Shown: in pieces, positions 241 through 36,315 of the stretch
Numbering within the stretch: the first letter of the stretch is position 1
Layout of the letters: every line of letters begins with the position of its first letter
Assembly: GCF_004010195.1 (NCBI RefSeq)
Contig: NC_057755.1
Span: 6,431,474-6,469,906 of the forward strand
Reading direction: 5' to 3'
Origin: Chiloscyllium plagiosum
Lineage: Eukaryota
DNA: 38,433 bases
Notes under the pieces: generated by a model
Databases searched by the model: none
Told to the model about the DNA's origin: nothing
Seen by the model: the letters and a program-made list of their open reading frames with translations, nothing else
Program-made: the position numbers and the translations under genes

Positions 241-387
241 ACATATTTCCCTCAGCATTCCTGATGAAGAGCTTTTGCCTGAAAAGTCGATTTTCCTGCT
301 CCTCGGATGCTGCCTGACCTGCTGTGCTTTTCCAGCACCACTCTAATCCTAACTCTAATCTCCAGCATCAGCAGTACCCACCTCCGC
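241..387 (+). mobile_element. Penelope-like terminal-repeat fragment with degenerate hammerhead core
   Basis: ctgatga-agagcttttgcct-gaaaagtc at 261-288; imperfect 17-bp flanking repeat at 224-240 and 388-404. Confidence 0.7.
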
Positions 388-1033
388 CACATAAATGTTT
401 TAGCTGGAACGACCATTATCTTGCTTTTCTTAAGACTGGGAAATTTTAAAGGGATTTGAATATACAACCTGTACCAGTACCGAATCAAGGACACTCAGTG
501 GTGAGTCAAGAAGTACGGACTTTCTCTCGTAGATCTGAAAGATTCACATTTTGACCTTCATCAGTGTCTAATCTATTGGGAAACGAGAAAACAAATTCCG
601 AGGAAATCCACCTAAAACTCTGCAGAAAGACGAACTCGACCCGAAAGGGTAATTGATTTCTCTCCACAGATGCTACTAGAACTACTCAGCTTTTCCAGCG
701 ATTCCTGATGTTGGTTCTGATTGTCAGAATCCGCAATCCTTTCGGCTTTTATCTACTCTATCCAGTGTGATTCTGTAACACAGCCATTTCCACACACTCT
801 CCACAGTCACAGCTCAAATATGACACAGCAACTCTCCCAAATAAATGCTGCGGAAGGAATTGAAGCATTTTAACCTGTGGAATTGTTATGTGGATGGTAC
901 TGAGAATGAGTTCGAATTCAGCTAGTCTGCTGGTTTTGGAATTTCGTCTTTCTAGAGTTGAAGCAAATCAGGTTTAACCATTTCACGCATTGATTGTTTG
1001 GACAAAGGACAGAGAACTCCCGTTTAAAAGCAG

Positions 1034-1106
1034 TGCCCAAATCGGGACATGAACTCGGGTCCCGACGATTAAATGTTGCCTTTTCAACAAACTGAGCTAT
1101 CCAAAC
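1034..1106 (-). pseudogene. tRNA-Lys(TTT) pseudogene
   Basis: Colinear 73-nt alignment to the intact Lys gene (tgcccaaatcgggacatgaac...actgagctatccaaac) with many substitutions; same flanks. Confidence 0.85.
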
Positions 1107-1784
1107 TCACTTCGGCTGACTTATCCAGTGACACACACTGTTGAACAGAGAATATTGCATTGATTTATATTTATTTTTATGGGTTTGTTGCACACATTTC
1201 CTTTTTCACTGCTTACTCTTACTGAAACAATGCATTCCCAATCGTATTTCACCGTCACCAACACATCTCCAATCCTTCACCGATTTCACACTCTCTCGTC
1301 ATTTACTTTCCGTGCAGTTGGCTTGCACGTTGCTACCTGAATCAAAAAATAATTCATCACTTCCAGCTCAAGTCTTCCAAACGCATTCACAACAAGAACC
1401 ACACTCTGGCAGCAAATGTTCAGAGAAAACACGGTTAATGCTTCCAGTCCAGTGAGACTTCGTCACAAATCACAACTTGCAATCCACAACAAGCTGCTCT
1501 CGACAAAAAAAAACTCTATCTTCCAAATGTCTGCAACAGAACGTCTCAAGCAAAACACATAACATGTAATCGCAGCTGTTGGACTGCGCTGGGCAAAGTC
1601 AAAAAGAACATCACGCTGGGTTTAGTGTCCAGCAGGTTTATTTGAACCCACAGGAAGGACAGCGAGAGAACTGAAGAAGGAATAAGGCTCTGAAAGCCTC
1701 TGGTTTCAAATCGAGTAAAGCACAGGCACCGGCGTTCCACGGGTTTGCACGACAAAACAGAACTGCAGATGCTGGAATCGAAAG

Positions 1785-2410
1785 TAGCTACAGGGAGAGA
1801 CTGAATAGGCTGGGGCTGCTTTCCCAGGATCATCAGAGGCTATGGGATGACCTTATCGAGGTCGCAATATGGTAAATGCACATGGTCTTTTTCCTAGGCT
1901 GGAGAAAAGGAGACAGATCTCGGTGAGAGAAGAAAGATTTAACAGGGATCTAAGGGGAACGTTTTTTTTTCACACGCAGTGGATGGTGCATGTATGGAAT
2001 GAGCTGCCAGAGGAAATGCTGGAGATTGGTCCAATTGCAACACTTAAAAGGCATCTGGGGGAAAGTGAGGACTGCAGATGCAGGCGATCGGAGTCAACAA
2101 AGTGTGGTGTTGGAAAAGCACAGCTGGTCAGGCAGCATCCAAGAAGCAGAAAAGTTGACGTGTTGAGCATGAGTTCCTCATCTGGAATGACCATTCCTGA
2201 TGACTCTCCGGAAGCTGCCTGACCGGCTGTGCTTTTCCAGTACCACGCTTTTTTGACTTTAAAAGGCATCTGGATGAGTATCTGGGTCGGAATGGTTTAC
2301 AGAGGTGTGGCGCATGAGATGGAAAATGGGACTAGATTAATTTGAGTTATCTGGTCGGCATGGACAAGTTGGATCCAGGGGTCTGTTTCCATCCTGTACA
2401 AAGCTATGAA
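1785..2410 (+). mobile_element. CR1 3' fragment interrupted by a hairpin insertion
   Basis: SYRERLNRLGL-like and VWNELPEE motifs plus 3' UTR. Confidence 0.8.
2059..2258. mobile_element. Hairpin Penelope-like insertion with 15-bp TSD
   Basis: ttaaaaggcatctgg at 2044-2058 and 2259-2273; inverted arms around tcatctggaatgaccattcctgatga. Confidence 0.78.
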
Positions 2411-2953
2411 CAATTTCCTGGGCACAGCACCTAAATGTTTCAACTAGAACGACGATTATCTTGCTATTCTTAAGACTGTTCAAATGTAAAGGGGGTTTGA
2501 AAACTAGTCTGTACCGGTACTTGAGTCCTGAAAGCACAGAGACAGAAGTAGAGACATGTCTCGCAGATCTGAAAGACTATTCTCGTTCACATTCTGACCT
2601 TTATCAGGACCTGATCAGTTTGGAAACAAAAACAGAAATTACGAGGAAAGCACCCTGAAACTCCTGAGAACGAGTCATTCTATCCAAAAGGATGGCTCTG
2701 ATTTCTCTCCACAGACGCTGACAGAAATGTTGTGCATTTCCAGCAATTTCTGATCTTGTTTCTGATTGCCAGCATCCGCACATCTTTCGGCTTTTATCTA
2801 CTCTATCCAATGTGTGTTCTGTCACACAGCGATTTCCGTACATTCCCCACAGTGCAAGCAGAAAAACTATACTTCAACACTGCCAAATAATTATTATGAA
2901 AGGAATTAAAACGTATTAAACTGTGGTAATCCTATGTCGACAGCAATAAGAAT

Positions 2954-3225
2954 GAGTTCGAAATCAGCCAGTACTTTGTTTCTGGGCAAATATGTTTTTG
3001 AGACGTGAAGCAGATCAGATTTAAACACGCCACGGATTGAGTTCAGAGACAGGACTGAAAACTTGGATTTAAAAGCCGGGCCCACGCAAGAGTTCGAAAT
3101 CAGCCAGTACTTTGTTTCTGGGCAAATATGTTTTTGAGACGTGAAGCAGATCAGATTTAAACACGCCACGGATTGAGTGCAGAGACAGTACTGAAAACTT
3201 GGATTTAAAAGCCGGGCCCACGCAA
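2954..3225. repeat. Tandem duplication, 2 x 136 bp
   Basis: gagttcgaaatcagcc...cccacgcaa at 2954-3089 and 3090-3225, nearly identical. Confidence 0.92.
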
Positions 3226-3254
3226 GAACTTGAACTCTGAACCCTCAGATTAAA
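3215..3254 (-). pseudogene. tRNA-Lys 3' half, cut at the anticodon loop by a CR1 insertion
   Basis: ggcccacgcaagaacttgaactctgaaccctcagattaaa matches the acceptor, T arm and anticodon stem, then switches to the CR1 (tagagtca)n tail. Confidence 0.8.
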
Positions 3255-4063
3255 TAGAGTCATAGAGTCATAGAGATGTACAGCATGGAAACAGACCTTT
3301 CGGTCCAACCCGTCCATGCCGACCAGATATCCCAACCCAACCTAGTCCCACCTGCCAGCACCCAGCCCATATCCCTCCAAACCCTTCCTATTCATATACC
3401 CATCCAAATGCCTCTTAAACGTTGCAATTGTACCAGCCTCCACCACAATCTCTGACAGCTCATTCAATACACGTACCACCATCTGTGTGAAAAGGTTGCC
3501 CCTTAGGTCTCTTTTATATCTTTCCGCTCTCACCTTAAACCTACGCCCTCTAGTTCTGGGCTCACCGACCCCAGGGAAAAGACTATCCATGCCACTCATA
3601 ATTTTGTAAACCTCAATAAGGTCACCTCTGAGCCTCCAACGCTCCAGGGAAAACAGCCCCAGCATGTTTAGCCTCTCCCTGTAGCTCAGATCCTCCAACC
3701 CTAGCAAAATCCTTGTAAATCTTTTCTGAAACCTTTCAGGTTTCACAACATCTTTCCGATACGAAGGAGACCAGAACTGCATGCAATATTCCAACAGTGG
3801 CCTAACCAATGTCCTGTATAGCCGCAACATGAACTCCAAACTCCTGTACTCAATACTCTGACCAATAAAGGAAAGCATACCAAACGCCTTCTTCACTATC
3901 CTATCTACCTGCGACTCCACTTTCAAGGAGCTATGAACCTGCACTCCAAGGTCTCTTTGTTCAGCAACACTCCCTAGGACCTTACCATTAAGTGTATAAG
4001 TCCTGCTAAGATTTGCTTTCCCAAAATGCAGCACCTCGCATTTATCTGAATTAAACTCCATCT
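3255..4063 (-). mobile_element. CR1 LINE 3' portion, relatively young; runs into a gap
   Basis: Open frame MEFNSDKCEVLHFG...RDLGVQVH...LVRPLLEYCMQFWSP...LRGDLIEVYKIM, followed by 3' UTR and (TGACTCTA)n tail. Confidence 0.93.
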
Positions 4064-4673
4064 NNNNNNNNNNNNNNNNNNNNNNNNNNNNNNNNNNNNN
4101 NNNNNNNNNNNNNNNNNNNNNNNNNNNNNNNNNNNNNNNNNNNNNNNNNNNNNNNNNNNNNNNNNNNNNNNNNNNNNNNNNNNNNNNNNNNNNNNNNNNN
4201 NNNNNNNNNNNNNNNNNNNNNNNNNNNNNNNNNNNNNNNNNNNNNNNNNNNNNNNNNNNNNNNNNNNNNNNNNNNNNNNNNNNNNNNNNNNNNNNNNNNN
4301 NNNNNNNNNNNNNNNNNNNNNNNNNNNNNNNNNNNNNNNNNNNNNNNNNNNNNNNNNNNNNNNNNNNNNNNNNNNNNNNNNNNNNNNNNNNNNNNNNNNN
4401 NNNNNNNNNNNNNNNNNNNNNNNNNNNNNNNNNNNNNNNNNNNNNNNNNNNNNNNNNNNNNNNNNNNNNNNNNNNNNNNNNNNNNNNNNNNNNNNNNNNN
4501 NNNNNNNNNNNNNNNNNNNNNNNNNNNNNNNNNNNNNNNNNNNNNNNNNNNNNNNNNNNNNNNNNNNNNNNNNNNNNNNNNNNNNNNNNNNNNNNNNNNN
4601 NNNNNNNNNNNNNNNNNNNNNNNNNNNNNNNNNNNNNNNNNNNNNNNNNNNNNNNNNNNNNNNNNNNNNNNNN
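4064..4673. other. Assembly gap
   Basis: N run. Confidence 0.99.
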
Positions 4674-4815
4674 AAGTGTTGGGCTATGGGGTGGTTGGGT
4701 TGGTTGGTCCGGGTGTCCCAGAGGTGTTCCCTGAAACATTCCGCAAGTAGGCGGCCTGCCTCCCCAATATAGAGGAGGCCACATCGGGCCCCAGTATAGA
4801 GGAGGCCACATCGCG
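4674..4815 (-). mobile_element. Penelope-like GIY-YIG endonuclease fragment
   Basis: CGLLYIGEAGRLLAECFREHLWDTRTNQPNHPIAQH (YIG motif, R/EH helix); abuts a gap. Confidence 0.8.
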
Positions 4816-4924
4816 ACCTTCTTATGTGAACCAAGAATCCAACACGCTGAATCGAGAGATCCACTTGTCACATGACTCTCACGTCAAAACCTTCTTCAAT
4901 AAGGCATTGAGTCTGAGCATTCAC

Positions 4925-5490
4925 TGGTAATGATGCAATTCGATGAAGCTTTAGTTCCACCACATTTAGAGCATTGTTTATAGGATTCAGCACGACAGTG
5001 TAGCGAGGCACTGGAGATGAAGCAAAAGGTGTTTACTAGGATGTAGTCTGCAGTGGTGTGCCTTATCTATAAGGAGAGAGAGGACAAACTTGGATTGTTT
5101 TTTGCCAGAACATTGGAGGCTGAGGGCCGACCTGATAGAACTCGAAACAATGATGAGGGACATGGAAACGGTGGAGTGTCTATTTTTTTTCCCCAGAGTG
5201 GAAATGTGAAATATTACTGGATATATGTTGAAGGTGGGAGACAGAAAATTTAAATGGGATCTGCAAGCCCAGCTATTTATACAGAGGGTGTAGCTGAGTG
5301 AAATGCGCTGCCAGGGTAGCTGGTGGAAGTGCACACTACAACAACGATTAAGAAGCATTTAGACAGATGCATGACCAGGTAGAGAATAAAGATACTGAAT
5401 GTAGGCAGGTAGGGTTAGTTTCAAATGTCATCACGTTTAGCTCAAAGATGGTGGGCTCAAGGACCTGTTGCTGTGATGTATTGTTGCGCA
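4925..5490 (+). mobile_element. Old CR1 3' fragment
   Basis: Degenerate CR1 C-terminal and UTR sequence; paralogous to 33300-33860. Confidence 0.65.
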
Positions 5491-5927
5491 AGTAGGAAAC
5501 CAGCGATTAATGTGTTCAAGGCTACTGTGTTCAAGGATCTCTCACAGATCTGAAAAATTCACATTTTGACCTACGTCGATACCTAATCTGTTTGGAAACA
5601 AGAAATCAAATTAAGAAGAAATCTCAGTCAAACTCTTGAGAAAGAGTCACTCGACTCAAAAGCGTAACTCTGATTTCTCTCCACAGATTCTACCATAGTT
5701 ACTTCCTTTTCCAGCGATGTCTGATCTTTATTTCTCATTAACAGCATCCGCACTCCTTTCGGCTTTTATCTTCTCTGTCCAGTGTTTTTCTGTAACACAG
5801 CCATTTACCACATACTCCCCACAGTTCAAGCACAAAAATAACACTTCAACCCTCCCAGATAAATACTACCGAAGAAATTGAAACATTTAACCTGTGGGAG
5901 TGTTATGTGGACGTTGCTAAGAATGAG

Positions 5928-6047
5928 GTAAAAACAATGACTGCAGATGCTGGAAACCAGATTCTGGATTAGTGGTGCTGGAAGAGCACGAAGCTCCTTG
6001 CATGCTGCCTGAACTGCTGTGCTCTTCCAGCTCCACTAATCCAGAAA
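5928..6047. mobile_element. Hairpin Penelope-like insertion with 14-bp TSD
   Basis: ttgctaagaatgag at 5914-5927 and 6048-6061; arms tctggattagtggtgctggaagagcac and gtgctcttccagctccactaatccaga. Confidence 0.8.
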
Positions 6048-6243: not shown

Positions 6244-6890
6244 TCAGTTAAGACTGCTGCTGTAGTGACGCACTCTGGTGAACCGAAAATATTGCACTGA
6301 TTTACTTTTATCTTTATCGGTTTGTCGCACACATTTCCTTTCTCATTGCTTCCCCCTATTCCCACAATGTGTTCACATTGGCAGTTCACTGGCACCAATG
6401 CATCTCCAGTCATCTACCAATTCCACACTCTATCATCTTTTTCTTTCGCTGCAGTTGGCCTGCAGGTTGCTTTCTGAAATCACAAAGTAAATTCATCAAT
6501 TCCAGCTCAAGCCTTCCAAACGCATTCATAACAAGAAGGACACAAATTTATCATGGAAATCAACATATCTGGCACCAACTTTCGAGAGAAAACATGGTTA
6601 ATGTTTTCAGTTCAGTGAGACTCTCAGTGCTCGCGAAAAAAAATCCATCTTCCAAATGGCTGCAAGCCAAACATGTCAAGCAAAACACATGACGTGTAAG
6701 CGCCCCTGTTGGACTGGGTTGGACAAAGTCAAAAATCACACCACACCGGGTTATAGTCCAACAGGGTTATTTCAACTCACAGGAAGGACAGCGAGCAAAC
6801 TGAAGAAGGGGCAGTGCTCCAACACCGTCTGGTTCCAAATCAAGTCAAACACGGGCACCGGTGGTTCACACGTTTGATGCACCATTGTTA

Positions 6891-7107: not shown

Positions 7108-7602
7108 AGTCATAGAAATATGAGGCCCTGAAATAGATCCTTCCGTCCAACTACATCATGCTGGCCAGATATCCTTACCTAATTTAGTTCCATTTGCCAG
7201 CATTTTACCTATATCCCTCTAAACCTTCCTGGTCATCTTCTCATCCTCATGACTTTTACATGCTGTAATTGTACCAGCCAACACAACTTCCTCTGTCAGC
7301 TCAGTCCATACACGCACCACTCTCTCTGTGAAATCGCTGCCCTTCAGTCCCTTTTAATTTTTTTTTCTATTCTCACACTCAACCTATGCCCTCTAGTTCT
7401 GGACTCCCCCAACCCAGGGAAAAGACTTTTTATTTTTCCTATCCATGCCCCTCGTGACATTGTAAACCTTGAAAAGGTGACCCTAAGCATCCAAACTTCC
7501 AGAGAAAACAGTCCCAGCCTATTCAGCCTCTCTCTGTAGCTCAAATCCTCCAATCCGGACAACGTTTTTGTAACTGGGCTCTGAACTTTTCAAGGTTCAC
7601 AA
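7108..7602 (-). mobile_element. CR1 3' fragment
   Basis: GLEDLSYRERLNRLGLFSLE...SLFPGLGESRTRGH. Confidence 0.85.
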
Positions 7603-7808: not shown

Positions 7809-8121
7809 TCACGTATTGGTACACATTGGCATGAAATGAGTTGGGAAATTGTGATTTGTTTGCATGTGGCATTTCTAATGGGAACCTAGAATCCAACACG
7901 CTGAATCGAAAGATTGATCTGCCATATGACCCTCACGTCAATTCATTTTTCAATGCGGTATTAAGTATGAGCGTTCGTTGGTGATGATGCACTTGGAGGA
8001 AAGTTTAAATGGGATCTGCAAGGCCAACTATTTATGCAGAGGGTGTAGCTGAGTGAAATGCTCTTCCAGGGCAGGTGGTGGAAGCACACACTACAGCAAC
8101 GTTTAAGAAGCATTGAGATCA

Positions 8122-11100
8122 GCAAAGAGATCAAACCAAGAACAAAGCAAATTTAAGACCAGGAATACGGCCTTCAGCCCTCCAAATCTGAGCCGATCCA
8201 AGTCTACTGTCTAAACCTGTCACCCAACTCTTACCATCTGTATCCCTCTGCTCTCCATCTACTCATGCATCTGTCCAGGCACATCTTAGATGAATTTACA
8301 GAGCCTTCCCCCCGACCTCAGCTGGCAACGCGTTCCAAGCACCCACACCCTCTGTGTGAAGTACTTGACACATGTATCCCTCTTAAACGTTATACCTCTC
8401 GCTTTGAAAGCGTGACCTTTCGTTATTGAATCTTTCATCCTGGGAAAAAGCTTATCTCTATCTACCCTGTCCATACCCTTCATGATTTTGTCGACCTCAA
8501 TCAGGACCCCCATCAAAAACTTCTTTTTTCTAATGAAAACAAACCTAACCTACTCAACCTCTCGTCATAGCTAGCACATTCCACACCAGTCAACATCCCA
8601 GTCAACCCTCTCCAAAGCAAGCAGAACTGTAAGCAGTATTCTAAATGCGTCCGAAACAACGTCATGTACAATTTTAATATGACCTGCCAGCTCTTTTTCT
8701 CAATACCCTATCCAATGAAGACAAGCATACTATATGTCTTCTTGACCACTCTATCCACCTGTGCAGGAACCTTCAGTATACAATGGACCTGCACTCCCAG
8801 ATCTCTTTGCTCATCAATTTTTCCCAAGGTTCTTCCATTCACTGTGTAATTCGCTCTAGAATTAGACCTCCGAAAATGCAACATCTCACATTTGCCTGGA
8901 TTCAACCTCTTCTGCCTGACCCTCCCCGTCTATCTATGTTTTCCTGTATTCTTTGACAGTCTCTTATGCTTTCTGCTACTCCACCAATCTTCGTGTCATC
9001 TGTAAACTTGCTGATCATACCAACAGTGACCTCTTCCAGATCATTGATGTCTATCACAAACAACAGTGGCCCCGGCACTGATACCTGTGGAACACCACTG
9101 GTCACCTTTCTCCATTTCGACAAACTCCCTTCAACTACTACTCTCTGTCTCCTGTTGCTCAACCAGCTCTTTATCCACCTAACTAGAACATCCTGCACAC
9201 CATGTGACTTCACTTTCTCTATTAGTTTACCAAGGGGAACCTTATCAAACGCCTTACTAAAGTCCATGTATATGACATTAATAACCCTTCATTCATCTAA
9301 CAACTTGGTCACTTCCTCAAAGAACTCTATAAAGCTGGTAAGGCACGATCTCCCCCGCACAAAACCATGTTACATAGCACTGATAAGCCCATTCTTTCTA
9401 AATATACATAGATCCTATCCCTCAGTACCTTCTCCAGCAACTTTCCCTCCACCTACGTCAGGCCCACTGGTCTGTAGTTACCTGGAATATCCTTACTACC
9501 CTTCTTGTACAGGGGGACAACATGAGCAATCCTCCAGTCCTCTGGCACCTGACCTGTGTTTAAGGATGTCACAAAGATATCTGTCAGGGCCCCAGATATT
9601 TCCTCTGTTGCCGCCCTCAGCAACCTGGGATAGTTCCCATCTGGTCCTGGGGTCTTGTCCACATTAGTAATCTCTACCCTAGCCAACACATCTTCCCTGC
9701 TTATTTCAATGTGATCCAGGCGAATCAAACTTCTGTCTTTAATCTCAACATTCATCATGTCCCTCTCCTCAGTGAACACTGATGCAAAATAATCATTCAA
9801 AATCTCATCTATTCTCTCAGATTCGACACACAGCCTTTCTTCATTATCCTTTAATGGAACAAATATTTCTCTACTTACCAACTTACTTCTTATGTAAGAA
9901 TAAAGGGCTTTGGGATTTTCCTTAATTCTGCTCGCGAAAGCTATTTCATGCCCCCTTTAGCCTCGTTTAGGACTGGTCCTTCTCTTCCGATATTTCTCCA
10001 GGGCCTATTCTCTTCTTAGCTGCCTGGACCTTATATAAGCTTCCCTTTTCCTCTTGACTAGCTGTACGATTTCTCCTGTCATCCACCATTCGCGAATCAT
10101 GCCTTTCCTATCCTTTGACTTCAATGGGACATGCCAATCCTGCACTACCTTTAACCTATCTTTGAAAGACTCCCACATATCAAATGTAGACTTCTCTTCG
10201 AATCGCTGCGTCCAATTCACATTTCCCAGCTCCTGCCGAATTTTGATACGATTGGCCTTCGACCAGTTTAGTGTTCTTCCCTTTGGACCGCATTCATCCT
10301 TGTCAACAGATGTTCTAAGTCTTATAAATTTGTGGTCATTATTCCCAAAGAAATCCGCCACTGCAACTTCTACCACATGGACTGGGTCATTCCCCAACAC
10401 CAGGTCCAATATGGCCCCTTTCTCCATCGGACTATTGACATACTGCTCTAAAAGACTCTCCTGGGCACTTCTTACAAATTCAATCCCATCCAGACCTCTG
10501 ACACTAAGTGCATCCCATTCAATGTTGGGAAAAGTAAAGTCTCCCATCACCACCACCCTATTGCCTCTCCATCTTTCCATAATCGGTTTACCTATTTGTT
10601 CTTCTACCTAACGCTCAATGTTAGAAGGCCTGTAATACAGACCCAACAGTTTAACTGCACCCTTCTTATTTCTCAGCTCAACCCATAATGCCTCATTACT
10701 CGAGTGCTCCATAGTGTCCTCCTTTAGCACAGCCATGATATCATCCCTGACCAGCAACACAACTCCACCCCACTCCCCCAACCCCCCGCCCTACTACTTC
10801 CCTCCCTCTCCTGTCTGAAGCGTCTATATCCTGGAACAGTTCGTTGCCAATCATGCCCTTCCTTCAACCAAGTCTCTATGATTACAATAATGTCACACTC
10901 CCAGCCTTCAATCCAAGCCCAAAGTTCATCTGCATACCCACTGTACTCCTTGCACAAAAGTAGATGCACTTCAGGCCACCAGACCCTTTTGCATTCATCT
11001 GTTATCTACTTAATCTTCCCCTTATTAATACTATCATGATTCTTACAGTCTCCAGGTTCCAACTCGCTGTCTACTTTTCTACTCTTCTGGTTCCCAGCCC

Positions 11101-12696
11101 ACTGATGTATTAGTGTAATACCTCCCCAACAGCAGTAACAACCCCACCCCCACCCCCCACCCCCACCCCAGAACATTAGCTCCAGTCTGGTTCAGACGTC
11201 GACCATCCATTTTGTAATAGACCTATCTTCCTCAGAACCGGTCCCAAAGTCCAATAAATCTGAACCCCTCTCTCCCACACCATTCCTCACGTCACGTGTT
11301 CATCCGGCCTTTTTTTTCATTTCTACACTCTCTAGCACGAGATCACTACATTTGAGGTCCTCCTTTTGAACTTCTATTCCAGCTGCAAAAATGAAGCTTT
11401 CAGGTCGTCATCTCGTTTTTTACTTTTATTGTTGGTGCCTATACATAGCAAGGTAACTGGCTGTTCACCCTCCCCTTTCCGAATGCTCTGCAGTCAATCA
11501 GTGACATTCCTGACACGAGCACCTGGGTGTCATACCATCCAGGAGTCCCGCTTTGGCCACAGAACCACCTATCTGCTCACCTGACAATAGAATCCCCTAT
11601 GACTACAACCCTACGAGACTTTTTCCCGCCCTTCTGAACAGCTGTGGGATTTTCCTTAATTCTGCTCGCGAAAGCTATTTCATGCCCCTTTTAGCCTCGT
11701 TTAGGACTGGTCCTTCTCTTCCGATATTTCTCCAGGGCTTATTCTCTTCTTAGCTGCCTGGACCTTATATAAGCTTCCCTTTTCCTCTTGACTAGCTGTA
11801 CGATTTCTCCTGTCATCCACCATTCACGAATCATGCCTTTCCTATCCTTTGACTTCAATGGGACATGCCAATCCTGCACTATCTTTAACCTATCTTTGAA
11901 AGACTCCCACATATCAAATGTGGACTTCTCTTCGAATCGCTGCGTCCAATTCACATTTCCCAGCTCCTGCCGAATTTTGATACGATTGGCCTTCGACCAG
12001 TTTAGTGTTCTTCCCTTTGGACCGCACGCTGTGGGCGGCGGGCCTTTTCCACACTGTAATGTAATGTAATGTAAAGCTGTGCCCACCACAGTGCCATGAT
12101 TTTGGCAAATGCTGCCCTCCCCTGGTGAGCCATCTCCCCTAACAGTATCCAAAGTGGTATGCCTGTTTTGGAGGGAGATGACCGCAGGGGACACCTGAAC
12201 TGCCTTCCCAATCTTTTTTCTGCTTTTCGGTCACTCAGTAACTGTCTCCCTCAGCCATTCAAACCTGTGGTGTGACTAATTCACTAAACGTGCTATCCAC
12301 GACCTCTTCAGAATCGCGGATGCTCCACAGTGAGTCCATCCGCTGTTCCAGAGCCATCATGTAGTCAAACAAAAGCTGCAGCTGGACACTTCTTCCAGGT
12401 CTAAGCCTCAGGTTAGTCAGCCACGTCCCTGAGCTCCCTCATTAAGCAAGAGGCACATGCCACGGGTCTGAGGTCCCATGTCATTGTAAGCTTAGCCGTA
12501 TATCAACTAACGAAAACCAAACAATGCACTTAAATACATGGTAGAAAGGAACAAGCAAAAATAAAATAAAAACCTTACCTTAGAGTCTTTTTTCTTCTGG
12601 TTACAGGAGGGGGACAGGTGGGAGATACTACACGTGTGGTATCTCGGGTTTAGCCACTGCTCAAATATATACGAAGTCCTTTCATTCCTGGAATTC
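8122..12696 (-). mobile_element. Near full-length degenerate CR1-clade LINE (ORF1 SGNH esterase-type; ORF2 APE endonuclease + reverse transcriptase)
   Basis: Minus-strand fragments in the expected order: VVIGDSIVR (ORF1, 11580-11606), DIIVIIETWL and VVMGDFTFPNIEW (APE), PGPDG...PEDWRIAHVVPLYKKG...NYRPVGLT, MDFSKAFDKVP...SGVPQ...KFTDDTK (RT), DLGVQVH (C-terminal). Multiple stops and frameshifts. Confidence 0.92.
11645..12026. repeat. 382-bp direct copy of 9911-10292
   Basis: Both copies encode the same CGPKGRTLNWSKAN...RQLRRE peptide with only a handful of substitutions. Confidence 0.93.
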
Positions 12697-12872
12697 ATTT
12701 TGGAAGGGATAACAAAAATTCGATTACTTAAAAGGCGAAAACTAGCTTTAGGGAAGTGTAGTTAAGGCTGTGGATCATTGCATGGATCAACCATACAATT
12801 CTTAAATGGCAAACTACCTGGAGGGGCCAAATGACATCCTCGTGCTCCTATTTCTTATGACCTTACAAGATA

Positions 12873-13232
12873 CGGCATAGTGGCTCAGTGGTTAGCACTG
12901 CTGCCTCACTGTGCCAGGGATCTGGCTTCAATTTCAGACTTAGTCGATTATCTGTGTGGAGTTTGCACATTCACCCTGTGTCTGTATAGGTTTCCTCCAG
13001 GTGTTCCAGTTTCCTCCCACAATCCAAAGATGGGCAGGCTAGGTGAATTAGCTATGCTAAATTTCCCATAGTGTTCAGGGATGTGTAGGTGAGGTGCATT
13101 AGACACGGGTAAATGTACAGTAATAGGGTAGGGGAATGCGTCTGGGTGAGTTACTCTTGGAGGGCCGGTGTAAACCTGTTGGACCGAAGGGCCTGTTTCC
13201 ACATTGTTGAGGTTCTATGATTCTATTCTATG
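12873..13232 (+). mobile_element. tRNA-derived V-SINE (HE1-like)
   Basis: A box tggctcagtgg, V-domain-like tgtgtggagtttgcacatt...tttcctcccacaatccaaagatg, CR1-like 3' tail ending in ttctatga repeats. Confidence 0.8.
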
Positions 13233-13602: not shown

Positions 13603-13739
13603 TCAACTAGGTAAAAACAATGACTGCAGATGCTGGAAACCAGAGTCTAGATTAGAGTGGTGCTGGAAAAGCACAGCAGTTCAGGCAGCATCCGAAGAGC
13701 AGTAAAATCGACGTTTCGGGCAAGAGCCCTTCATCAGAC
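13603..13739 (-). mobile_element. Penelope-like terminal fragment with 16-bp TSD
   Basis: acaaatcaggtttaaa at 13587-13602 and 13740-13755; the empty site is visible at 37858-37873. Confidence 0.85.
13710..13737 (-). ncRNA. Minimal type I hammerhead ribozyme core motif
   Basis: Minus strand reads CTGATGA-A-GGGC-TCTT-GCCC-GAAAC-GTC: conserved core, perfect stem II, GUC site. The 5' strand of stem I is missing here. Confidence 0.65.
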
Positions 13740-13802
13740 ACAAATCAGGTTTAAACCTGTCACGCATTGATTGTTTGGTCACAGAACACGGAAATCCGAT
13801 TT

Positions 13803-13810: not shown

Positions 13811-13883
13811 CGCCCGAACAGGGACTTGAACCCTGGACCCTCAGATTAAAAGTCTGATGCTCTACCGACTGAGCTATCCGGGC
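13811..13883 (-). tRNA. tRNA-Lys(TTT), intact
   Basis: Reverse complement reads GCCCGGATAGCTCAGTCGGTAGAGCATCAGACTTTTAATCTGAGGGTCCAGGGTTCAAGTCCCTGTTCGGGCG, the canonical 73-nt vertebrate tRNA-Lys(UUU). A and B boxes are intact; T4 terminator at 13803-13806. Confidence 0.97.
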
Positions 13884-19334: not shown

Positions 19335-19895
19335 AAATCTAATTGAAGTGTTCTGGGTGTTCTTATATCGACTAAGAGATAACCCAGAGTGAGTTACAAA
19401 CAGAAATATAATCGAGGGGTTCTGGGTATATCCAATAACAGACACCCGGGAGTGAGCGACAGATTTGAACCTTTTCAAGGAGTTTTGGCTGCTTATATTT
19501 GGAATAACAGCTATCCAGGAGCGAGTTACGGACTAGAATCTAATCAAGGGATCAGGGATGAGTTATATAAGCAATAACAGATACTGAGAGTGAGTTTCAG
19601 ACTTGAATCAATGGTATCTAGGGAGAGAATAAGGCCCATCAAGGATCAGCAAAGCATCCTCTGTGTAGAACTGCAGGAGATGATGAGATTCTGATCAAGT
19701 ACTGAGTTATAGACTGGAATCTCTTCAAAGGTTTTCTGGTTTATATTAAGAATAAGAGATGCTTGGGAGTAGTTAAAGATTCAAATCTCATCGCGGGGTA
19801 CAGGTTGGTTTTTATACAGAACAACAATAGCCAGGATAGAGTTGCAGACTGCAGTCTAATCAAGGGTTTTGCGGTGGTTTTGATATAGAATAAGA
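19335..19895. repeat. Degenerate block of the same 70-bp satellite
   Basis: Repeated gagtgagttac / gaatctaatc / aataacag motifs. Confidence 0.8.
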
Positions 19896-20302
19896 GTTGT
19901 TTATTCAGGTTTTGTGCATTTGAGCCTCTCAGATATTTGGAGTGTAGTACGTAAGTAAGACATTGCTGGAATGTGACATTGTCTCTCTGCATTCACTGTA
20001 AACAAATGATGGAATTTGCATTTTAATCATCTTCAGAGAGTTGTCTCCATTTCCTCCCTCTGCAAGGATCTATCAATGGAAATGGATTTTGACACATTCC
20101 CTCCTTTCCCTTGCTGATCCCCAATTCAGCCAGGCAGACATCTTACATTTGTTCACAATTGCCATTTAATATTAGCACAGCACTGACATTGACTTTATAA
20201 ATCGAAAAAAGCAAGAGACATTGGCAACATCAATACAGTTTGAAAATATTGAACATTGGACCCACACTGACATCTAAGATCCTCTGACCCTAAACCAGCC
20301 GC

Positions 20303-20328
20303 NNNNNNNNNNNNNNNNNNNNNNNNNN
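20303..20328. other. Assembly gap
   Basis: N run. Confidence 0.99.
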
Positions 20329-20744
20329 AGATGACTGGACAGATTGTGGAGATAATTGCTGAGGTTCTATCTCAGAAGTTTCCTGATCTGTGATACTCCA
20401 ACATGTAACTCTCCCTGCCTGTCCTTCATTTCTACATTTACATCAACTGTGTGTGATTATGTGTGATTGTGTTTCTGTCTGTGAGTGAGTGTTTCTGTGT
20501 GAGTGAGAGATCGTGCCTGGGTATGTCCAGTTTGAGTGTCAATGATTCCATGATTGAACTCGTGTGGGTTTCTCTCACACACGAACTCTGAAACACACAC
20601 AAGCACACACACAGACCTGCTCATTGCCTGTCATAATCATACACACACACTCTCATGCACACACATTTTCACGCACACACACTGACTCACTCACACATTT
20701 GCACCCTCTCACTCTCATTCTCAATCTTCCAACAAATCAGTGTT

Positions 20745-21710
20745 CAGGGGCTTTATGTATCGAATAATGAATACTTCAGAGTGAGTTACTGACTGGAATC
20801 TAATCAAGGGTTCAGTGGGGATTTACATGCACAGTAACAGATACCCGGGAGTAAGTTACAGGCTGGCATCTAATTGACGGCTTCAGGGTGGTTTATGTAT
20901 GGAATCACAGATACCCGGGAGTGAGTTCAGACAGGAATCTAATCAAGGGGCTCAGGATGGTTTATATAAAGAATAACAGATACCCACAAGTGAGTTACAG
21001 ACTGGAATCTAATCGAGGAGTTCAGGGTGGTTTATATACAGAATAACAGATACCCTGGAGTGAGTTACAGACTGGAATCTAATCGAGGGGTTCAGGGTGG
21101 TTTATATACTGAATAACAGACACTCCGCAGTGAGTTACAGACTGGAATCTAATCGAGGAGTCCAAGGTGATTTATGTATGGAATACCGGATACCCGGGAG
21201 TGAGTTCAGACTTCAATCAAATGAAAGTGTTCCATATGGTTCATCTGTGGAGTAACAGTTGCACATGAGTGAATTAAAGATGGCAATCTACTCGAGGGAT
21301 TTGGGGTGGTTTAGATCTGGAATATCAGATACCCAGGAGAGAGTTACAGACTGTAATCTAATTGAGAGTGTTGGGATGGTTTATACTAGGAACAGCAGAC
21401 ACCCAGAAGACTGTTACACACTGTAATCTAATTGAGAGTTTCGGGAACAAACAGATACATGGAAGCGAGTTACAGACTCTAATCTAATTCAGGGTTACAG
21501 TGCTGGTTATATATGGAATGACAGTTATCCAGGAGTGACCTCCACACTGGCATCTAATCAAGGGTTCAGTATGGTTCATATATGAAATAATTGATACCGG
21601 GGAGTGAGTTACAGACTGGAAAATCATCGACGGTGACGATGGTTTGGATATGGAGCAATCGATACCCAGAAGTGAGGTAGAGACTGGAATCGAATGGAGA
21701 GGTTCAGGTG
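20745..21710. repeat. 70-bp tandem satellite
   Basis: gaataacagatacccgggagtgagttacagactggaatctaatcgaggggttcagggtggtttatata-type unit; gaataacaga recurs at 20971, 21041 and 21111. Confidence 0.92.
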
Positions 21711-27120: not shown

Positions 27121-27317
27121 ATTAAAAATCACACAACACCAGGTTATAGTCCAACATGCTTAATTGGAAGCACCAGCTTTCAGAGCTCCACCCCTTCATC
27201 AGGACAAGCGCTCCAAAAGCAACTGCTTCCAATTAAACCTGTTGGACTATATACTGGTGTTGTGTGACTTTTAACTTTGTACACCCCAGTCCAACACCGG
27301 CATCTCCAAATCATTTC
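27121..27317. mobile_element. Hairpin Penelope-like insertion (second family) with 10-bp TSD
   Basis: tcccagagaa at 27111-27120 and 27318-27327; long inverted arms; minus-strand CTGATGA-A-GGGG-TGGAG-CTCT-GAAA-GCTG at 27174-27202. Confidence 0.8.
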
Positions 27318-29741: not shown

Positions 29742-29907
29742 AAAAATGTGTTGCTGGAAAAGCGCAGCAGGTCAGGCAGCATCAAAGGAGCAGGAGAATC
29801 GACCTTTCAGGCATAAGCCCTTCCTTTGATGCTGCCTGACCTGCTGCGCTTTTCCAGCAACACATTTTTCAGCTGTGATCTCCAGCATCTGCAGTCCTCA
29901 CTTTCTC
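29742..29907. mobile_element. Hairpin Penelope-like insertion with 16-bp TSD
   Basis: ctacact(g/t)caacactg at 29726-29741 and 29908-29923; 51-bp inverted repeat at 29739-29789 and 29822-29872. Confidence 0.82.
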
Positions 29908-30979: not shown

Positions 30980-31610
30980 GAGTCATAGACATGTACAGCA
31001 CGGAAACAGACCGTTCCTTCCAACCTGTCCATGCCGAGTAGATATCCCAACCCAATCTAGTCCCACCTGCCAGCACCCGGCCCATATCCCTCCAAATCCT
31101 CCTGTGGGAAGAATAGAATGAACTTTGAAAGTGCTCAGAAAAGATTTGCAAGAACGTTGCCTGAGTTCAAGGGTTTGAGCTGCAGGAAGAGGCTGAAATG
31201 GCTGGGACTGTTTTCTCTGGAGTGTCGGAAGCTGCGGGGTGACCCGATAGAGGTTTATAAAATCATGAGGGGCTTGGTGAGGGTAAATAGACAAGGTCTT
31301 TTCCCTGGGGTGGCGGAGACAAGATCTTAAGGACATAAATTTAGGTGAAAGGGGAAAGATTTAAAAGGGACCTAAAGGGCATTTTTTTTCAGGTAGTGAA
31401 TGGTGCGTGTATGTGAATGTGCTGCCGGAGCAAGTGGTGGAGGCTGGTTCAATTACAATATTTAAAAGGCATTGGATGGGCGCATGGACAGGAAATGATT
31501 AGAGGGATACGGACAAGGTGCTGGCAAATGGAACGATATCTGGTCTGCATGAACGAGTTGGTCGAAGGGTCTGTTTCCATTCTGTACAAAGCTGTGAACC
31601 CATGACTCTA
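30980..31610. mobile_element. Two fused CR1 3' fragments (minus 30980-31100, plus 31101-31610)
   Basis: Minus-strand UTR joined to plus-strand QKRFARTLP...LGLFSLECRKLRGDPIEVYKIM. Confidence 0.8.
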
Positions 31611-32260
31611 ACAATTTGCTAGACACAGCACATTAATGTCTCAGATGGAACGACCATTATCTTGCCTTTCTTCAGACTGGGAAATTTGAAAGTGTTTGAA
31701 AACACAACCTGTGCCGGCACCCGAACCAAGGGCTCTCAGAGACAGATTAGAAAGTAGGAGATCTGAAAGGTTCACATTTCGGCCTTCGGTCAGTATCTAA
31801 CCTGTTCGGAAACAAAAAAACGAAATGACGAAGGAATCTGAGTCAAACACTTGAGAAAGAGTCACTCGCCTCAAAATGTGGTTTCTCTCCACCGATGCTA
31901 CCAAAGCTGCTCAGCTTTTCCAGCGATTTCTGATGTTGGTTCTGATTGCCAGCATCCGCACTTCTTTCGGCTTCTATCTCCTCTCTCCAGTGTGTTTCTG
32001 TATCACAGCCATTTCCACACACTTTCCACAGTTCAAGGACAAAAATAGCACTTCAACTCTCCCAAATAAATACGACGGAAGGATTTGAAACATTTTAAGC
32101 TGCGGGAGTGTTATGGGGGCGGTACTAAGAATGAGTTCGAGCTCAGCTAGTCTGCTGTTTCTGGGCATTTTTGTCTTTTGAGACTTCAAGCAAATCAGGT
32201 TTCAATGTGTCGTGCATCGATGGTTTTGACACAGGCTGGAGAACTCCGATTTAGGAGCAG

Positions 32261-32333
32261 CGCCTGAATAAGGACTTGAACCCTGGACCCTCAGATTAAA
32301 AGTTGGATGCTCCACTGACTGAGCCATCCATAA
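32261..32333 (-). pseudogene. tRNA-Lys(TTT) pseudogene with intact B box and anticodon loop
   Basis: 73-nt colinear copy. The 5' acceptor strand (TTATGGA) no longer pairs properly with the 3' strand, and the terminator is mutated. Confidence 0.85.
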
Positions 32334-33055
32334 CCGCGCTGATGCTAACGCAGGGGCATACACTGGCGAACAGAGAATATTGCATGGATTTAATTTTATC
32401 TTTGTGAACTTGTCGCATTCACGTTTTTTTTTCACACTGCTTCGCCCGACACCCACAATCACATTTCACCGGCACCAACGCATCTCCGATCCTGCACCAA
32501 TTCCAAATTCCCTCATCTGTTTTTCTTTCTCTGCGGTTGGCTTGCACGCTGCTTCCTGAACTCAAAAGATAACTTCATCACTTCCAACTCAAGCCTTCCA
32601 AACGCATTCACAACAAGAATGGACGGGTTGGACTGAAGGGTCTGTTTCCATGCCGTACACCTCTTTGACTCTATGACTCTAAGGTCACAAATTGCTCGTG
32701 AAAAACAACACCTCTGGCAGCAACTATCCAGAGAAAAACACGGTCAATGTTTCCAGTCCAGTGAGACTTCTTCACAAATCAGAACAAATTGCTCTCTAAA
32801 AACAGCTCCACCTTCCAAATGGCTGCAAACAGAACCTCTCAAGCAAAACGCATGACATCTATGTGCCGCCGTTGGTCTGGGCTGGACAAAGTCAAAAATC
32901 ACACCACACTGGGTCAGTGTCCAACAGGTTTATATGAATCCACAGGAAGGACAGCGAACGAACTGAAGAAGGAGTGAGGCCCCGAAAGTTTCTGGTTTCA
33001 AATCGAGTAAAACTCAGGCACCGGCGTTTCACAGGTTTGCACAGCTGGCTGTCCC

Positions 33056-33116
33056 GGTTCCAGAGTGCAGTGGTTAACGCATCTGCTTGCTCTGAGTTCC
33101 CGTGCCAGAGGAACCA
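33056..33116 (+). pseudogene. tRNA-Val pseudogene with anticodon-arm deletion
   Basis: ggttccagagtgcagtggtt...ccagaggaacca, 61 nt, same deletion as 7748-7808. Confidence 0.8.
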
Positions 33117-33299
33117 TTGCGTTTTGCACCACGTTGACATGAAGTGAGTTGGGAAATTGCGATTGTGATTTGCAGGCGGCAATTCTAATGCGAACCAATT
33201 ATCCAACACGCTGAATCGAGAGATGGACTTGTCACACAGCTCTCACGTCAATTCCTTCTTCAATGGCGCATTGAGTATGAATGTTCGCTTGTTCTGATA

Positions 33300-33860
33300 C
33301 AGCTGGTAATGACTTGGATGAAGCTTTTGTTAGACCATATTTAGAGCACTGTGTGGTGGTTTCGGCACCACACTATAGTGAGGCGCTGCAGGCGAAGCAA
33401 AGGGTGTTTATCAGGATATAGTCTGCAGTGGTGTGCCTTGTCGAGAAGGAGCAGGAGGACAGACTTGGATTGTTCTTTGCCAGAGCTGCTGGCCGACCTG
33501 ATCGAACTCTGTACAATGAGGAGTGGCATGGATACGGTGGAGGGTCTGATTCTTTTTTCCCCGAGGGTGGAAATGACAAATGTTACTGGACATACGTTTA
33601 AGGTGAGAAACAGAAAATTAAAACTGGGGTCTGCAAGGACAGCTATTTATATAGAAGCTTTAGTTGAGTTGAATGTTCTGCCAGTGCAAGTGGTAGAAGC
33701 ACATACTCCAGTAACGATTAAGAAGCGTTTAGACAGACGCATGACGAGGCAGAGAATAGAGATACTGTGTGTAGGCAGGTACGGTTAGTTTCAAATGTCA
33801 TCATGTTTGGCTCAAGGATGGTGGGCCGAAGGGCCTGTTGCTGTGCTGTAGTGTTGCGTG
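33300..33860 (+). mobile_element. Old CR1 3' fragment
   Basis: Paralog of 4925-5490; FSPRVEMTNVTGHTFKV motif. Confidence 0.65.
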
Positions 33861-33944
33861 AGTAGGATATCAGTGATTGATGTGTTCAAAGCTGAAGTAA
33901 AAAGAATTTTGATAGCCAACGTTGTTGGCAATGAGATTAGACAT

Positions 33945-34705
33945 TGTGCACTAAATGGAAAAATGGTGGGGAGTGTTGCTGAACAAATGTACCTTGCAGT
34001 GCAGGCTCTTGTTACTTGAATGTGGAGCAGCAGGTAGCTAGGATAGTCAAGAAGGCGTTTGGAATGCTTGCCTTTGTTTTTCAAAGTGTTGAGTATAGGA
34101 GTTGGGAGGTCATGTTGTACAGTTGTACGTGATATTGGTTCGGCCACTTTTGGAACGTTTTGTGCAAATCAGGTTTCCCTCCTGTCGGAAGAATGAAATG
34201 AAACTTGAAAGGGCTCAGAAAAGATTTGCAAGAACGTGGCCTGGGTTCGAGGGTTTGAGCTACAAGAAGAGGCTGAAAAGGCTGGAGCTGTTTTCTCTGG
34301 AGTGTCTGAGGCTGAGAGGTGACCTCACAGAGGTTTATAAAATCACGAGGGGCATGGATAGGGCAAATATACAAGGTATTTTCCCTGGGGTGGGGGCGTC
34401 CAGAGCTAAAGGACATAAAATTAGGTGAAAAGGGCAAGATTTAAAAAGGACCCGAGGAACATTTTTTTCCCGCAGAGAATGGTGTGTGTATGAGAATGAG
34501 CTGCCAGAGCAAGTGGTGGAGGCTGGTTCAGTTACATTATTTAAAAGGCATTGTGATGGGTGCATGGATAGGAAGGGTTTAGAGGGATACGGTCCACGTG
34601 CTGGCACGTAGGCCGAGATTAAGTTATGATATCGAGTCAGAATGACCTTGTTGGACCAAAGGGTCTGATTCCATCCTGTACAAAGCTGTGAACCCATGAC
34701 ACTAA
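33945..34705 (+). mobile_element. CR1 3' fragment
   Basis: LVRPLLE...LERAQKRFAR...LFSLECLRLRGDLTEVYKI. Confidence 0.88.
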
Positions 34706-35107
34706 CAATTTGCTCGACGCAGCGCAAAAACGTTTCAGCTGGAACAACCATGATCTTGCTTTTCTTAAGACTGGGAAAATTTGAAAGGCTTTGAAAACAC
34801 AACCATAACCGGAACCTAAACCAAGGACACTCAGAGACGGGTCAGGAAGGCGGGACTCTCTCTCGCAGATCTGAAAGGTTCACATTTCGATCTTCGTCAG
34901 TGTCTAATCTGTTCATAAAAAAAAGTCGTTCATTTTGGAAGGGATAAGAAAAACACGATTATTTTAAAGGCAAAAACTAACTTGAGGGAAGTGGAGTTAA
35001 GGCTGTGGATCATTGTACGGGTCAAGCATATAATTCTTGAATGGCAAACAACCTGAAGGGGACAACTGGTCTACTCGTGTTCCTATTTCTTATGACTTTA
35101 CAAGCTA

Positions 35108-35425
35108 CGGCATAGTGGTTCATTGGTCAGCACTGCTGCCTCACTGTGCCAAGGATCCGGGTTCAATTACAGTCTCAGGCAATTATCTGTGTGGAGTTTG
35201 CCAATTCTCCCTGAGTCTGCACAGGCTTCCTCCCACAATCCAAAGATTGTCAATTGGCTATGCTAAATTTCATGTCATGTGCAGGTGAGGTGCATTCATC
35301 TGGGGTAAATGTAGAGTAATAGAGTAGGGGGATGAGTCTGTGTAGTTTACTCTTGGAGGGTCGGTGTGAACCTGTTGGGCCAAGGGGCCTGTTTCCGCAC
35401 CGGTGCGGTTCTATAATTCTATTGT
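35108..35425 (+). mobile_element. V-SINE (HE1-like), duplicated copy of 12873-13232
   Basis: Same body and same flanks on both sides. Confidence 0.78.
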
Positions 35426-35805
35426 ATGACACGAAAGTACAAAGAAATCTCGCTCAAACTCTTGAGAAAGAAACACTTGACCCGAAGGGGTAACTCTGAT
35501 TTCTCTCCACAGATACTAGCAGAGATGCTCACACTCCCAGCAATTTCTGATGTTGTTTCTGATTGCCATCATCTGCATTTCTTTTGGCTTTTATCCACTG
35601 GATCCAGTGTATTTCTGTAACACAGCCATTGGCACACAATATCCACAGAACAAAATAACACTTCAACTCTCTCAAATAAATATGATGGAAGGAATTGAAA
35701 CATTTTAACCTGTGGGAGCCTTATGTGGACGTTATTGAGAATGAGTTCGAGCTCAGCTGGCCTGCTGTTTTGTCTTTCGAGAATTGAAAGGAATTATGTT
35801 TAAAC

Positions 35806-36315
35806 TCCATTTCCCAAATAAAAGCAAATTACTGCGGATGCTGGAATTTTGAAACCAAAAGAGAAAATGCTGGAAAATCTCAGCAGGTCTGGCAGCATCT
35901 GTAAGGAGAGAAAAGAGCTGACGTCAGCTCTTTTCTCTCCTTACAGATGCTGCCAGACCTGCTGAGATTTTTGAGCATTTACTCTTTTGGTTTCAGTTCC
36001 AGCATCCACAGTAATTTGCTTTTATTCAGTGTTTAACCCACTGCCACCACTCTTCCAGGAATGCCTACGCTGAAGAAGTATTGCTCTTCTCTCCGACAGG
36101 ATTTTCGTTTGTCTCTCTCTCTCCCCCTGTCCACCTTCACTGCTTTCCTTTTCTCTCTCAGTGTTAGACAAGGTATTTAATAAGGCTCGCTTCCACAGCC
36201 ATATTTCCTTCCTTAGTGAGTGTCTTCGGAGCTTTGACAAAGGGTCAGTCTGACTCAAAACGTCAGCTCTTTTCTCTGCTTACAGATGCTGTCAGACCTG
36301 CTGAGACTTTTCACG
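35806..36315 (+). mobile_element. Penelope-like insertion with a 210-bp palindrome
   Basis: Palindrome 35817-36026 centred on gctgac|gtcagc; a further direct copy of the arm at 36260-36311 follows a decayed hammerhead (tttgacaaagggtcagtctgactcaaaacgtc). Confidence 0.75.

Follow-up and report, generated by a model that had tools for sequence, protein, structure and literature searches.

Short insertions bearing traces of a hammerhead ribozyme are scattered over a 38,433-nucleotide stretch of the genome of the shark Chiloscyllium plagiosum (assembly GCF_004010195.1, contig NC_057755.1, positions 6,431,474 to 6,469,906). This whole stretch, referred to below as the window and numbered from its first letter, consists of tandem units in decay, each comprising roughly one transfer RNA (tRNA) gene and its flanks. 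It harbors seven inserts of only 120-500 bp, without reverse transcriptase (RT), which we name by their positions in kb (0.24, 2.1, 5.9, 13.6, 27.1, 29.7 and 35.8; Table 1). A preliminary description made from the letters alone had correctly placed all seven and read them as a single family, either of very short truncated Penelope insertions or of non-autonomous units resembling retrozymes or miniature inverted-repeat transposable elements (MITEs), in which the ribozyme might define where the complementary DNA (cDNA) ends or folds back. Here, we argue that the inserts are very probably truncated, inverted insertions of endonuclease (EN)-positive Penelope-like elements (PLEs), and that their fold-back is most likely placed by the sequence symmetry of the ribozyme, not by its cleavage.

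Table 1. Inserts, older relatives, coding fragments and intact tRNA genes in the window, with the direct repeats flanking the inserts (ORF, open reading frame)
Position	Strand	Feature	Structure	Flanking repeats
241-387	+	Family A monomer	20-nt leader; core from C3 (261) to C17 (288); predicted cleavage between 288 and 289; full tail	13/17, degenerate (224-240 / 388-404)
2059-2258		Family A hairpin in a fragment that we take to be CR1-like	Tail-bearing arm minus, 2059-2189, decayed core, end 5 nt upstream of C3; plus arm, 2192-2258, with helix-I strand and first core letters, then a jump to the first base past the cleavage site	15/15, exact (2044-2058 / 2259-2273)
5928-6047		Family A hairpin without hammerhead	Tail-bearing arm minus, 5928-5989; short arm plus, ~5992-6047	14/14, exact
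13603-13739	-	Family A monomer	Bears the one minimal hammerhead that is fully intact (core 13737-13710); 5' end at C3 or at most 2 nt away	16 exact (18/19)
27121-27317		Family B hairpin	Short arm minus, 27121-27204, whole core; tail-bearing arm plus, 27203-27314, from helix II	10 exact (11/13)
29742-29907		Family A hairpin	Short arm minus, 29742-29823, reaching core G8; tail-bearing arm plus, 29823-29907, beginning ~13 nt past the cleavage site	15/16
35806-36315		Family C insert	Composite of the next three rows	10/15, degenerate, possible (35805-35819 / 36309-36323)
35817-36026		Family C perfect palindrome	~105-nt arms (99/104), both to tail end; centre between 35922 and 35923, at the C15.2-G16.2 dyad and 3 nt upstream of the cleavage site	
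36061-36229	+	Frameshifted ORF start, putatively of a PLE	Directly after the family C tail; matches horn-shark predicted protein P0002, residues 72-127 (84% and 74%)	
36229-36311	+	Second family C copy, partial tandem	From the 5' strand of helix I to ~50 nt past the dyad	
2623-2797		Old family D (C-related), best-kept copy	Core decayed; short arm at 2623-2653 in inverted orientation, matching 2732-2762 at 24/31; tail ~35 nt past short-arm end	
6689-6845		Old family B head-to-head copy in tandem unit	Tail arm minus; decayed core plus	
4676-4789	-	PLE GIY-YIG endonuclease fragment	33/38 identical (87%) to Chiloscyllium punctatum protein P0001	
38062-38433	+	PLE ORF 3' end	GIY-YIG C-terminus, frameshifted, to ~38290; then C/T-rich untranslated stretch running off the window	
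13811-13883 and 37929-38001		tRNA-Lys(TTT), intact	The only two intact copies in the window	

Anatomy of the inserts and their hammerhead motif

Sequence comparison splits the inserts into three families, so that the single-family view has to be abandoned. Family A comprises five inserts (0.24, 2.1, 5.9, 13.6 and 29.7 kb) with at least three tail variants; family B (27.1 kb) has no BLAST match to the other six, and family C (35.8 kb) is a distant relative of family A. As first described, five of the seven are strong hairpins, with z scores of -7.3 to -28.4 against 60 mononucleotide shuffles, and the fold-back of the 2.1, 27.2, 29.8 and 35.9 kb copies lies in or beside the motif. The two monomers (0.24 and 13.6 kb) are not strong hairpins (z of -1.3 and -0.9).

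Read along the hammerhead strand, each copy is a piece of one and the same kind, starting close to the core and finishing at a fixed point about 100 nt farther downstream. Five of the seven inserts carry a head-to-head inverted partner, and strand-switch junctions recur in copies beyond the window. One arm reaches the fixed end and the other falls short of it by 33 nt (2.1 kb), 34 nt (5.9 kb), 35-38 nt (29.7 kb) or about 40 nt (27.1 kb), a one-sided tail of 33-40 nt that is found in four of the five young hairpins and spans two unrelated families, A and B. The five hairpins have five different junctions. Their arms share rare variants: those of the 29.7 kb insert are identical at 47 of 47 positions, and both arms of the 5.9 kb insert carry the 329C variant, present at about 2% of depth in matching contigs. 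This points to a single source molecule for both arms, or to conversion at a later time.

The flanking repeats have the appearance of target-site duplications (TSDs) 10-19 bp long, which we accept for six of the inserts; four are exact (10-16 bp), one has a single mismatch and two are degenerate, the last being the 0.24 and 35.8 kb cases. Of 1,872 random placements, 3.3% yielded an exact repeat of at least 10 bp and 0.7% one of at least 14 bp. The tandem units are useful here because their paralogues supply empty insertion sites. For the 0.24, 2.1, 5.9 and 13.6 kb copies, the target is present once, and the insert is absent, in paralogous units (for the 13.6 kb copy at ~37855-37977, 96% alike); these four are therefore insertions with TSDs. 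Among the tandem units of the window, an empty paralogue was found for the right flank only of the 29.7 kb copy and for neither flank of the 27.1 kb copy.

Taken by itself, the bare CTGATGA..GAAA pattern is not significant in the window (4 matches against 1.52 expected, reached in 7 of 100 shuffles), and none of the 20 Rfam matches at E<=1 was to a hammerhead family; microRNA precursors, a reading that we tried and rejected, scored far below the gathering threshold in every case. A descriptor of the full motif finds 4 sites in the window against 1.5 expected, and 2 exact ones against 0.15 expected; it missed the mutated motifs at 0.24, 2.1, 27.2 and 29.8 kb, and its match at 7469 looks like chance. 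What stands is the whole arrangement, namely core, bulged base, helix II, GAAA, a palindromic two-base remnant of helix III, UH and a short helix I, which is that of the minimal type-I hammerhead defined, U3-A8 variant included, for metazoan PLEs (PMC4209133; here and below, statements from the literature refer to the available portions of the cited texts). It is intact only in the 13.6 kb copy, the remaining copies being mutated or cut. The family C motif, previously given as CTGANGA, is really a U3-A8 core variant at 36234-36264, with a 6-bp helix I and one change (G12 to A). The family B motif has G at N17 and is predicted not to be cleavable as it is.

Copy 241-387 has private core changes at 270, 280 and 285, where the majority letters over matching family A contigs restore an intact core. 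Those contigs show 12-24% CpG-type decay in the core, and most genomic copies therefore appear to decay neutrally. The leader of the same copy (241-260), which lies at the cluster of 5' ends described below, has a pyrimidine tract and CAG just before 256, resembling a splice acceptor; a second likeness is to a short part of 305-312 in inverted orientation, and the main subfamily has different letters there.

The 35.8 kb insert is a palindrome followed by the frameshifted ORF start and then by a second copy that begins in helix I, that is, a partial tandem combined with an inversion. We also found older, decayed copies within the tandem units, which the preliminary set of inserts had missed. 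Family B recurs near 1.6, 14.2, 30.7, 32.9 and 36.4 kb, and family D near 0.65, 5.7, 13.3, 31.9, 35.5 and 37.6 kb; the inverted arm of the latter is clear only at 2623-2797 (one of six copies tested) and weak at 5.6 kb. These old B and D copies inserted before the units duplicated, each recurring in six or seven units.

Coding traces of PLEs lie elsewhere in the window. The fragments at 4676-4789 and 38062-38254 match P0001, a protein laid out as RT end, linker and GIY-YIG; the Pfam GIY-YIG score (E 0.0046) is below the cut-off, Pfam gave no match with the short EN fragments, and neither fragment is joined to any insert. To judge by eye, the protein that they resemble, with its Cys/His linker motif, may be of Neptune type. 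A search with the putative ORF start of family C gave two matches, P0002 and the 1,089-amino-acid P0003 (E 3e-4). The 24-nt family A motif is absent from the viral and metagenome contigs searched, and P0001 gave 44 pattern matches in metagenomes and no confirmed locus. Since no EN or RT fragment is joined to an insert, PLE membership rests on architecture and motif: arms arranged head to head, a tail on one side, TSDs, a hammerhead of minimal type I, and the ORF start that follows the 35.8 kb tail. On these grounds, we hold with high confidence that the inserts are dead, extremely 5'-truncated PLE insertions, consisting of the hammerhead-bearing end of the pseudo-long terminal repeat (pLTR) and belonging to at least three EN-positive families, as the first of the two earlier readings had it.

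Junctions in matching contigs and RNA reads

Copies beyond the window were collected from 4 of 24 listed sequencing runs, compared with window positions 205-470 at 80% likeness, with copy 241-387 as the reference. Matching contigs numbered 102,010 in run X2 and 69,935 in run X1, the match being confined to the insert; the counts are saturated and contigs do not equal copies, and with so many matches family A must be very abundant.

Of the 66 junction entries, 15 were listed: a single step back and 14 strand switches. Among the latter, twelve lead from 252-258 (helix I, 5' strand, plus the letters just upstream) to 286-301, and they hold 41 of the 45 listed strand-switch contigs in X2 and all 22 in X1. 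At least six of the listed coordinate pairs recur in both runs. The commonest listed junction, 256 to 294, is in the exact register of helix I; among the listed contigs, 13 of 45 in X2 and 5 of 22 in X1 are in exact register, and 26 of 45 and 13 of 22 lie within 2 nt of it. Even with all 51 unlisted entries placed outside this box, 12 of 65 would fall within it, against 1.3-2.7 expected, on entries that are perhaps not independent. Several listed joints that go back along the element restart at 258, at 286-294 or at 304-310, which suggests that inversions and partial-tandem junctions share their hot spots.

Unaligned contig ends are less informative. The piles at 282 and 294 are technical alignment breaks, the loose letters being the hammerhead itself. 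Loose ends before 256 and 257 (1,077 and 427 in X2) agree with one another at only 0.34 and 0.31, so that most of them run into unrelated flanks within 30 nt. Those behind 341 and 348 are AT-rich after about 8 letters, consistent with a short 3' end.

In the comparison of breakpoints with the cleavage site, proposed with the first reading, the breakpoints cluster, and their mode lies at 294, not at the cleavage site. The hot spot at helix I and the cleavage-site region is real as clustering and partly confounded by the choice of reference.

In RNA run X21, 3,096 of 12.96 million reads match on both strands, and 99% of them continue into unlike sequence. No pile of read starts or ends was seen at the cleavage site in this one polyA single-cell library, of which about 2% was read and which makes a weak test, and no back-joint was listed in this type of library, which is ill-suited to circles. 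The pattern fits passive read-through, with no sign of cleavage.

A proposed re-priming near helix I and its alternatives

We propose the following course of events. The element's GIY-YIG endonuclease would nick the target with a stagger of 10-19 bp, as the TSDs indicate. RT would then start about 100 nt downstream of the hammerhead, at the fixed 3' ends, and on uncleaved RNA, since wherever a hairpin retains any of the core, one of its arms passes the cleavage site. The cDNA would often stop on reaching the 5' strand of helix I or slightly beyond it, where the junctions cluster, partly confounded as they are; the RNA 5' end, a splice boundary and stalling are candidate causes of a stop near -5. 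In Drosophila virilis, the 5' end of helix I is also the point where an intron ends (PMC4209133), and the pLTR contains the promoter (PMC2377424), which makes an RNA boundary a candidate for this stop. The cDNA could next join the target directly, yielding a monomer, or re-prime on the self-complementary letters of helix I or of the helix III dyad, yielding a head-to-head copy of the same molecule. Finally, the second arm would be resolved 33-40 nt short of the first, which is the known PLE tail.

The observation that carries this scheme is the placement of the junctions on letters that are self-complementary by virtue of the ribozyme fold: helix I in the contigs, the helix III dyad in the 35.9 kb copy, and helix I with a jump to +1 in the 2.2 kb copy. 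We put the probability of the explanation as a whole, PLE stubs together with cDNA re-priming near helix I, at roughly 0.6, and consider the complete sequence of steps slightly better than an even bet. A broader proposal, that the hammerhead acts mainly as a structural signal for finishing insertion, with RT ending at helix I and helix complementarity (or +1 cleavage of a second RNA) priming the second strand, is tentative and probably goes too far.

Several points weigh against this interpretation. The junction box was drawn after the data had been seen, and the entries within it may share ancestry; recurrent junctions could descend from a few amplified copies. Position 256 is where the reference leaves the upstream letters of the major subfamily, which censors longer arms. 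Family A has a weak helix I (two pairs, a mismatch and one pair), none of the five hairpin junctions in the window is in exact helix-I register, and in folding of the cDNA of copy 241-387 no helix-I snap-back formed, the 3' end being paired at 305-312. The right end of the 35.8 kb insert departs from the tail rule, and the identity of the arms could stem from gene conversion. On the coding side, no long RT-bearing relative of the family C ORF start was found, and searches for a contiguous link from a hammerhead family to an RT ORF came back empty.

Twin priming would give the same products as a snap-back. Here, a dimeric PLE protein would nick and extend both target strands, and cDNAs begun at the distal and proximal RT start sites would anneal by their 3' ends through microhomology in the dyad or in helix I. 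Published work shows that both strands are cleaved and extended and that two start sites bound the tail (PMC11167929), and the fixed asymmetry of 33-40 nt is explained more simply, with no separate resolution step. The rare variants shared by the arms, however, require that both cDNAs were copied from the same RNA or converted later, and the 35.8 kb palindrome has two full-tail arms. We regard twin priming as rather unlikely.

Self-cleavage might instead set one of the ends: the second cDNA would run off at +1, the 5' end of an already cleaved RNA, and be joined to the other arm by repair. This is the strongest form of what the preliminary description suggested. The listed starts of the second arm do cluster at 286-301, around the 288/289 bond; the junction from 256 to 290, seen in three contigs of each of the two DNA-like runs, and the 2.1 kb copy resume at the first base of the 3' product, and several backward joints restart at 286-294. 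The mode, however, is the helix-I register, not 289, and the partner arm always spans the cleavage site. The RNA reads pile up nowhere at that site, within the limits of the library described above, and in vitro, ribozyme mutants insert normally and the site marked neither the start nor the end of any read (PMC11167929). An origin of the arms in cleavage is thus unlikely, and of the suggestion that the ribozyme defines the cDNA end or fold-back, the positional part stands, as a hot spot at helix I and the cleavage site, while an effect of cleavage is unsupported: the arms pass the site, no RNA pile is seen and cleavage is dispensable in vitro.

We judge it similarly improbable that the hot spot is an artefact of the reference and of the listing rule, the inserts being random truncations that are short as PLE insertions generally are. 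The divergence of the reference from the main subfamily at 256, the technical breaks at 282 and 294 and the small share of junction entries seen all lend this some weight. Against it, the listed joints have no letters between their two sides, the uncensored interval 259-340 holds only 2 of the 14 listed strand switches, and the excess calculated above persists under the most adverse placement of the unlisted entries. Moreover, 5' ends established independently of the tool, at 13.7, 2.19, 27.2 and 36.23 kb, are no more than 7 nt away from C3/U3.

It is very unlikely that the inserts are retrozyme- or MITE-like units mobilised whole, possibly via circles, with the 339-nt spacing of the family C hammerheads as one monomer, even though copy number is very high and non-LTR retrozymes derive from PLE pLTRs, averaging 363 bp in one chondrichthyan (bioRxiv 2026.07.22.740005). 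Five hairpins with five different junctions and without shared terminal inverted repeats, and cores that are minimal, not canonical, speak against the idea; the 339-nt unit contains the ORF start, as expected of a partial-tandem PLE insertion. Nor does the window hold a head-to-tail array with complete hammerheads in two or more consecutive units, the 35.8 kb insert having one complete motif and one cut one, and by this tandem criterion we reject the retrozyme. A DNA-transposon MITE unrelated to Penelope, which the preliminary description had named as a refuting outcome, has the palindromic shape in its favor and can practically be dismissed, given the asymmetric ends, the variable centres, the hammerhead core, monomers sharing the same type of TSD, TSDs varying from 10 to 19 bp where a fixed length would be expected, and the lack of a terminal-inverted-repeat consensus across copies.

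As annotation, the result is ordinary: this is PLE debris that mimics MITEs or microRNA hairpins and belongs filed as PLE. The origin of the tandem and inverted ends of PLEs and the purpose of their hammerhead are stated open questions (PMC8557442, PMC11167929). A structural-signal role, if true, would explain both the hallmark inverted pLTRs and the tens of thousands of shark copies that stop at the ribozyme, and the huge copy numbers in sharks would make the role of the ribozyme directly measurable. The junction hot spot, in register with helix I and seen in a family that matches at least tens of thousands of contigs, gives a concrete prediction for computational and in vitro work alike.

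Genomic setting and comparison with known systems

The tandem units lie near 0.6, 2.6, 5.6, 13.2, 31.8, 35.4 and 37.5 kb (window positions 600-38050). Besides the two intact genes, decayed copies of tRNA-Lys occur near 1.04, 3.2, 6.2 and 32.3 kb, and a second tRNA is represented by decayed copies near 6.9, 14.3 and 36.6 kb, which lie on the opposite strand. Just left of the family C insert (35805), the unit has lost about 330 bp, among them the position of tRNA-Lys, apparently via short microhomology. The 2.6 kb unit has a local tandem duplication of about 120 bp (3076-3225) upstream of its decayed tRNA-Lys. Two copies of what we presume to be a tRNA-derived element resembling short interspersed elements (12870-13215 and 35100-35410) sit at similar places in two units. 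Fragments of long interspersed nuclear elements (LINEs), which we take to be CR1-like, are scattered through the window. A long remnant (8100-12030, minus strand) has an RT domain, RVT_1 at 8902-9288, found by Pfam in one of six proteins and lying in a LINE-type ORF, and an internal duplication of about 380 bp (~9920-10290 again at 11650-12025). A degenerate 70-bp tandem repeat at 19349-21701, with at least 18 copies among those listed, forms two blocks flanking CA microsatellites.

EN-positive PLEs are known for an inverted 5'-truncated partner and a tail of 30-40 bp on one side (PMC8557442, PMC3846280, PMC8969392). The shark inserts resemble Penelope/Poseidon, Neptune and Naiad elements (PMC3846280, PMC8557442) in 5' truncation, head-to-head partner, palindromic junction, one-sided tail of 30-40 bp, TSD, partial tandem and the start of the ORF at the end of the pLTR. 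They differ in being only 120-500 bp long and lacking RT, and in having TSDs of 10-19 bp, compared with 8-10 bp in the examples from rotifers. PMC3846280 had already put forward palindromic junctions and self-priming at a time when the hammerhead was not yet recognised. Our mapping of the junction to helix I and the helix III dyad of the hammerhead does not appear in the available portions of those accounts, and we found no paper that places PLE inversion junctions on ribozyme helices, in a search that reached few subscription journals and no supplements.

The motifs share with the minimal hammerheads of metazoan PLEs (PMC4209133) the type-I topology without a helix III loop, the palindromic 15.2-16.2 pair, the bulged base before helix II, the short helix I and the U3-A8 variant. 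In both, most motifs are dispersed and single, ascribed there to truncated PLEs, with some pairs on opposite strands. Helix II has 4-6 bp here and 7-8 bp in Schistosoma, the motif is intact in one of our seven copies, and sharks are not mentioned in the available part of that account.

For the Poseidon element of Anolis carolinensis, in vitro work tied the tail to two RT start sites and found that ribozyme mutants still insert (PMC11167929). The shark copies agree in the two fixed 3' ends that bound the tail, about 60-100 nt downstream of the hammerhead, and in uncleaved RNA as the template. The ORF starts at helix II in Anolis and after the tail in family C, and the available text does not treat inversion junctions.

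With non-LTR retrozymes (PMC7229834; bioRxiv 10.64898/2026.07.22.740005), the inserts have in common that they are short, non-coding, PLE-related and equipped with a type-I hammerhead. Consecutive units of a retrozyme are arrayed head to tail and carry canonical or complete motifs, whereas the shark inserts are single or head-to-head stubs with TSD and tail.

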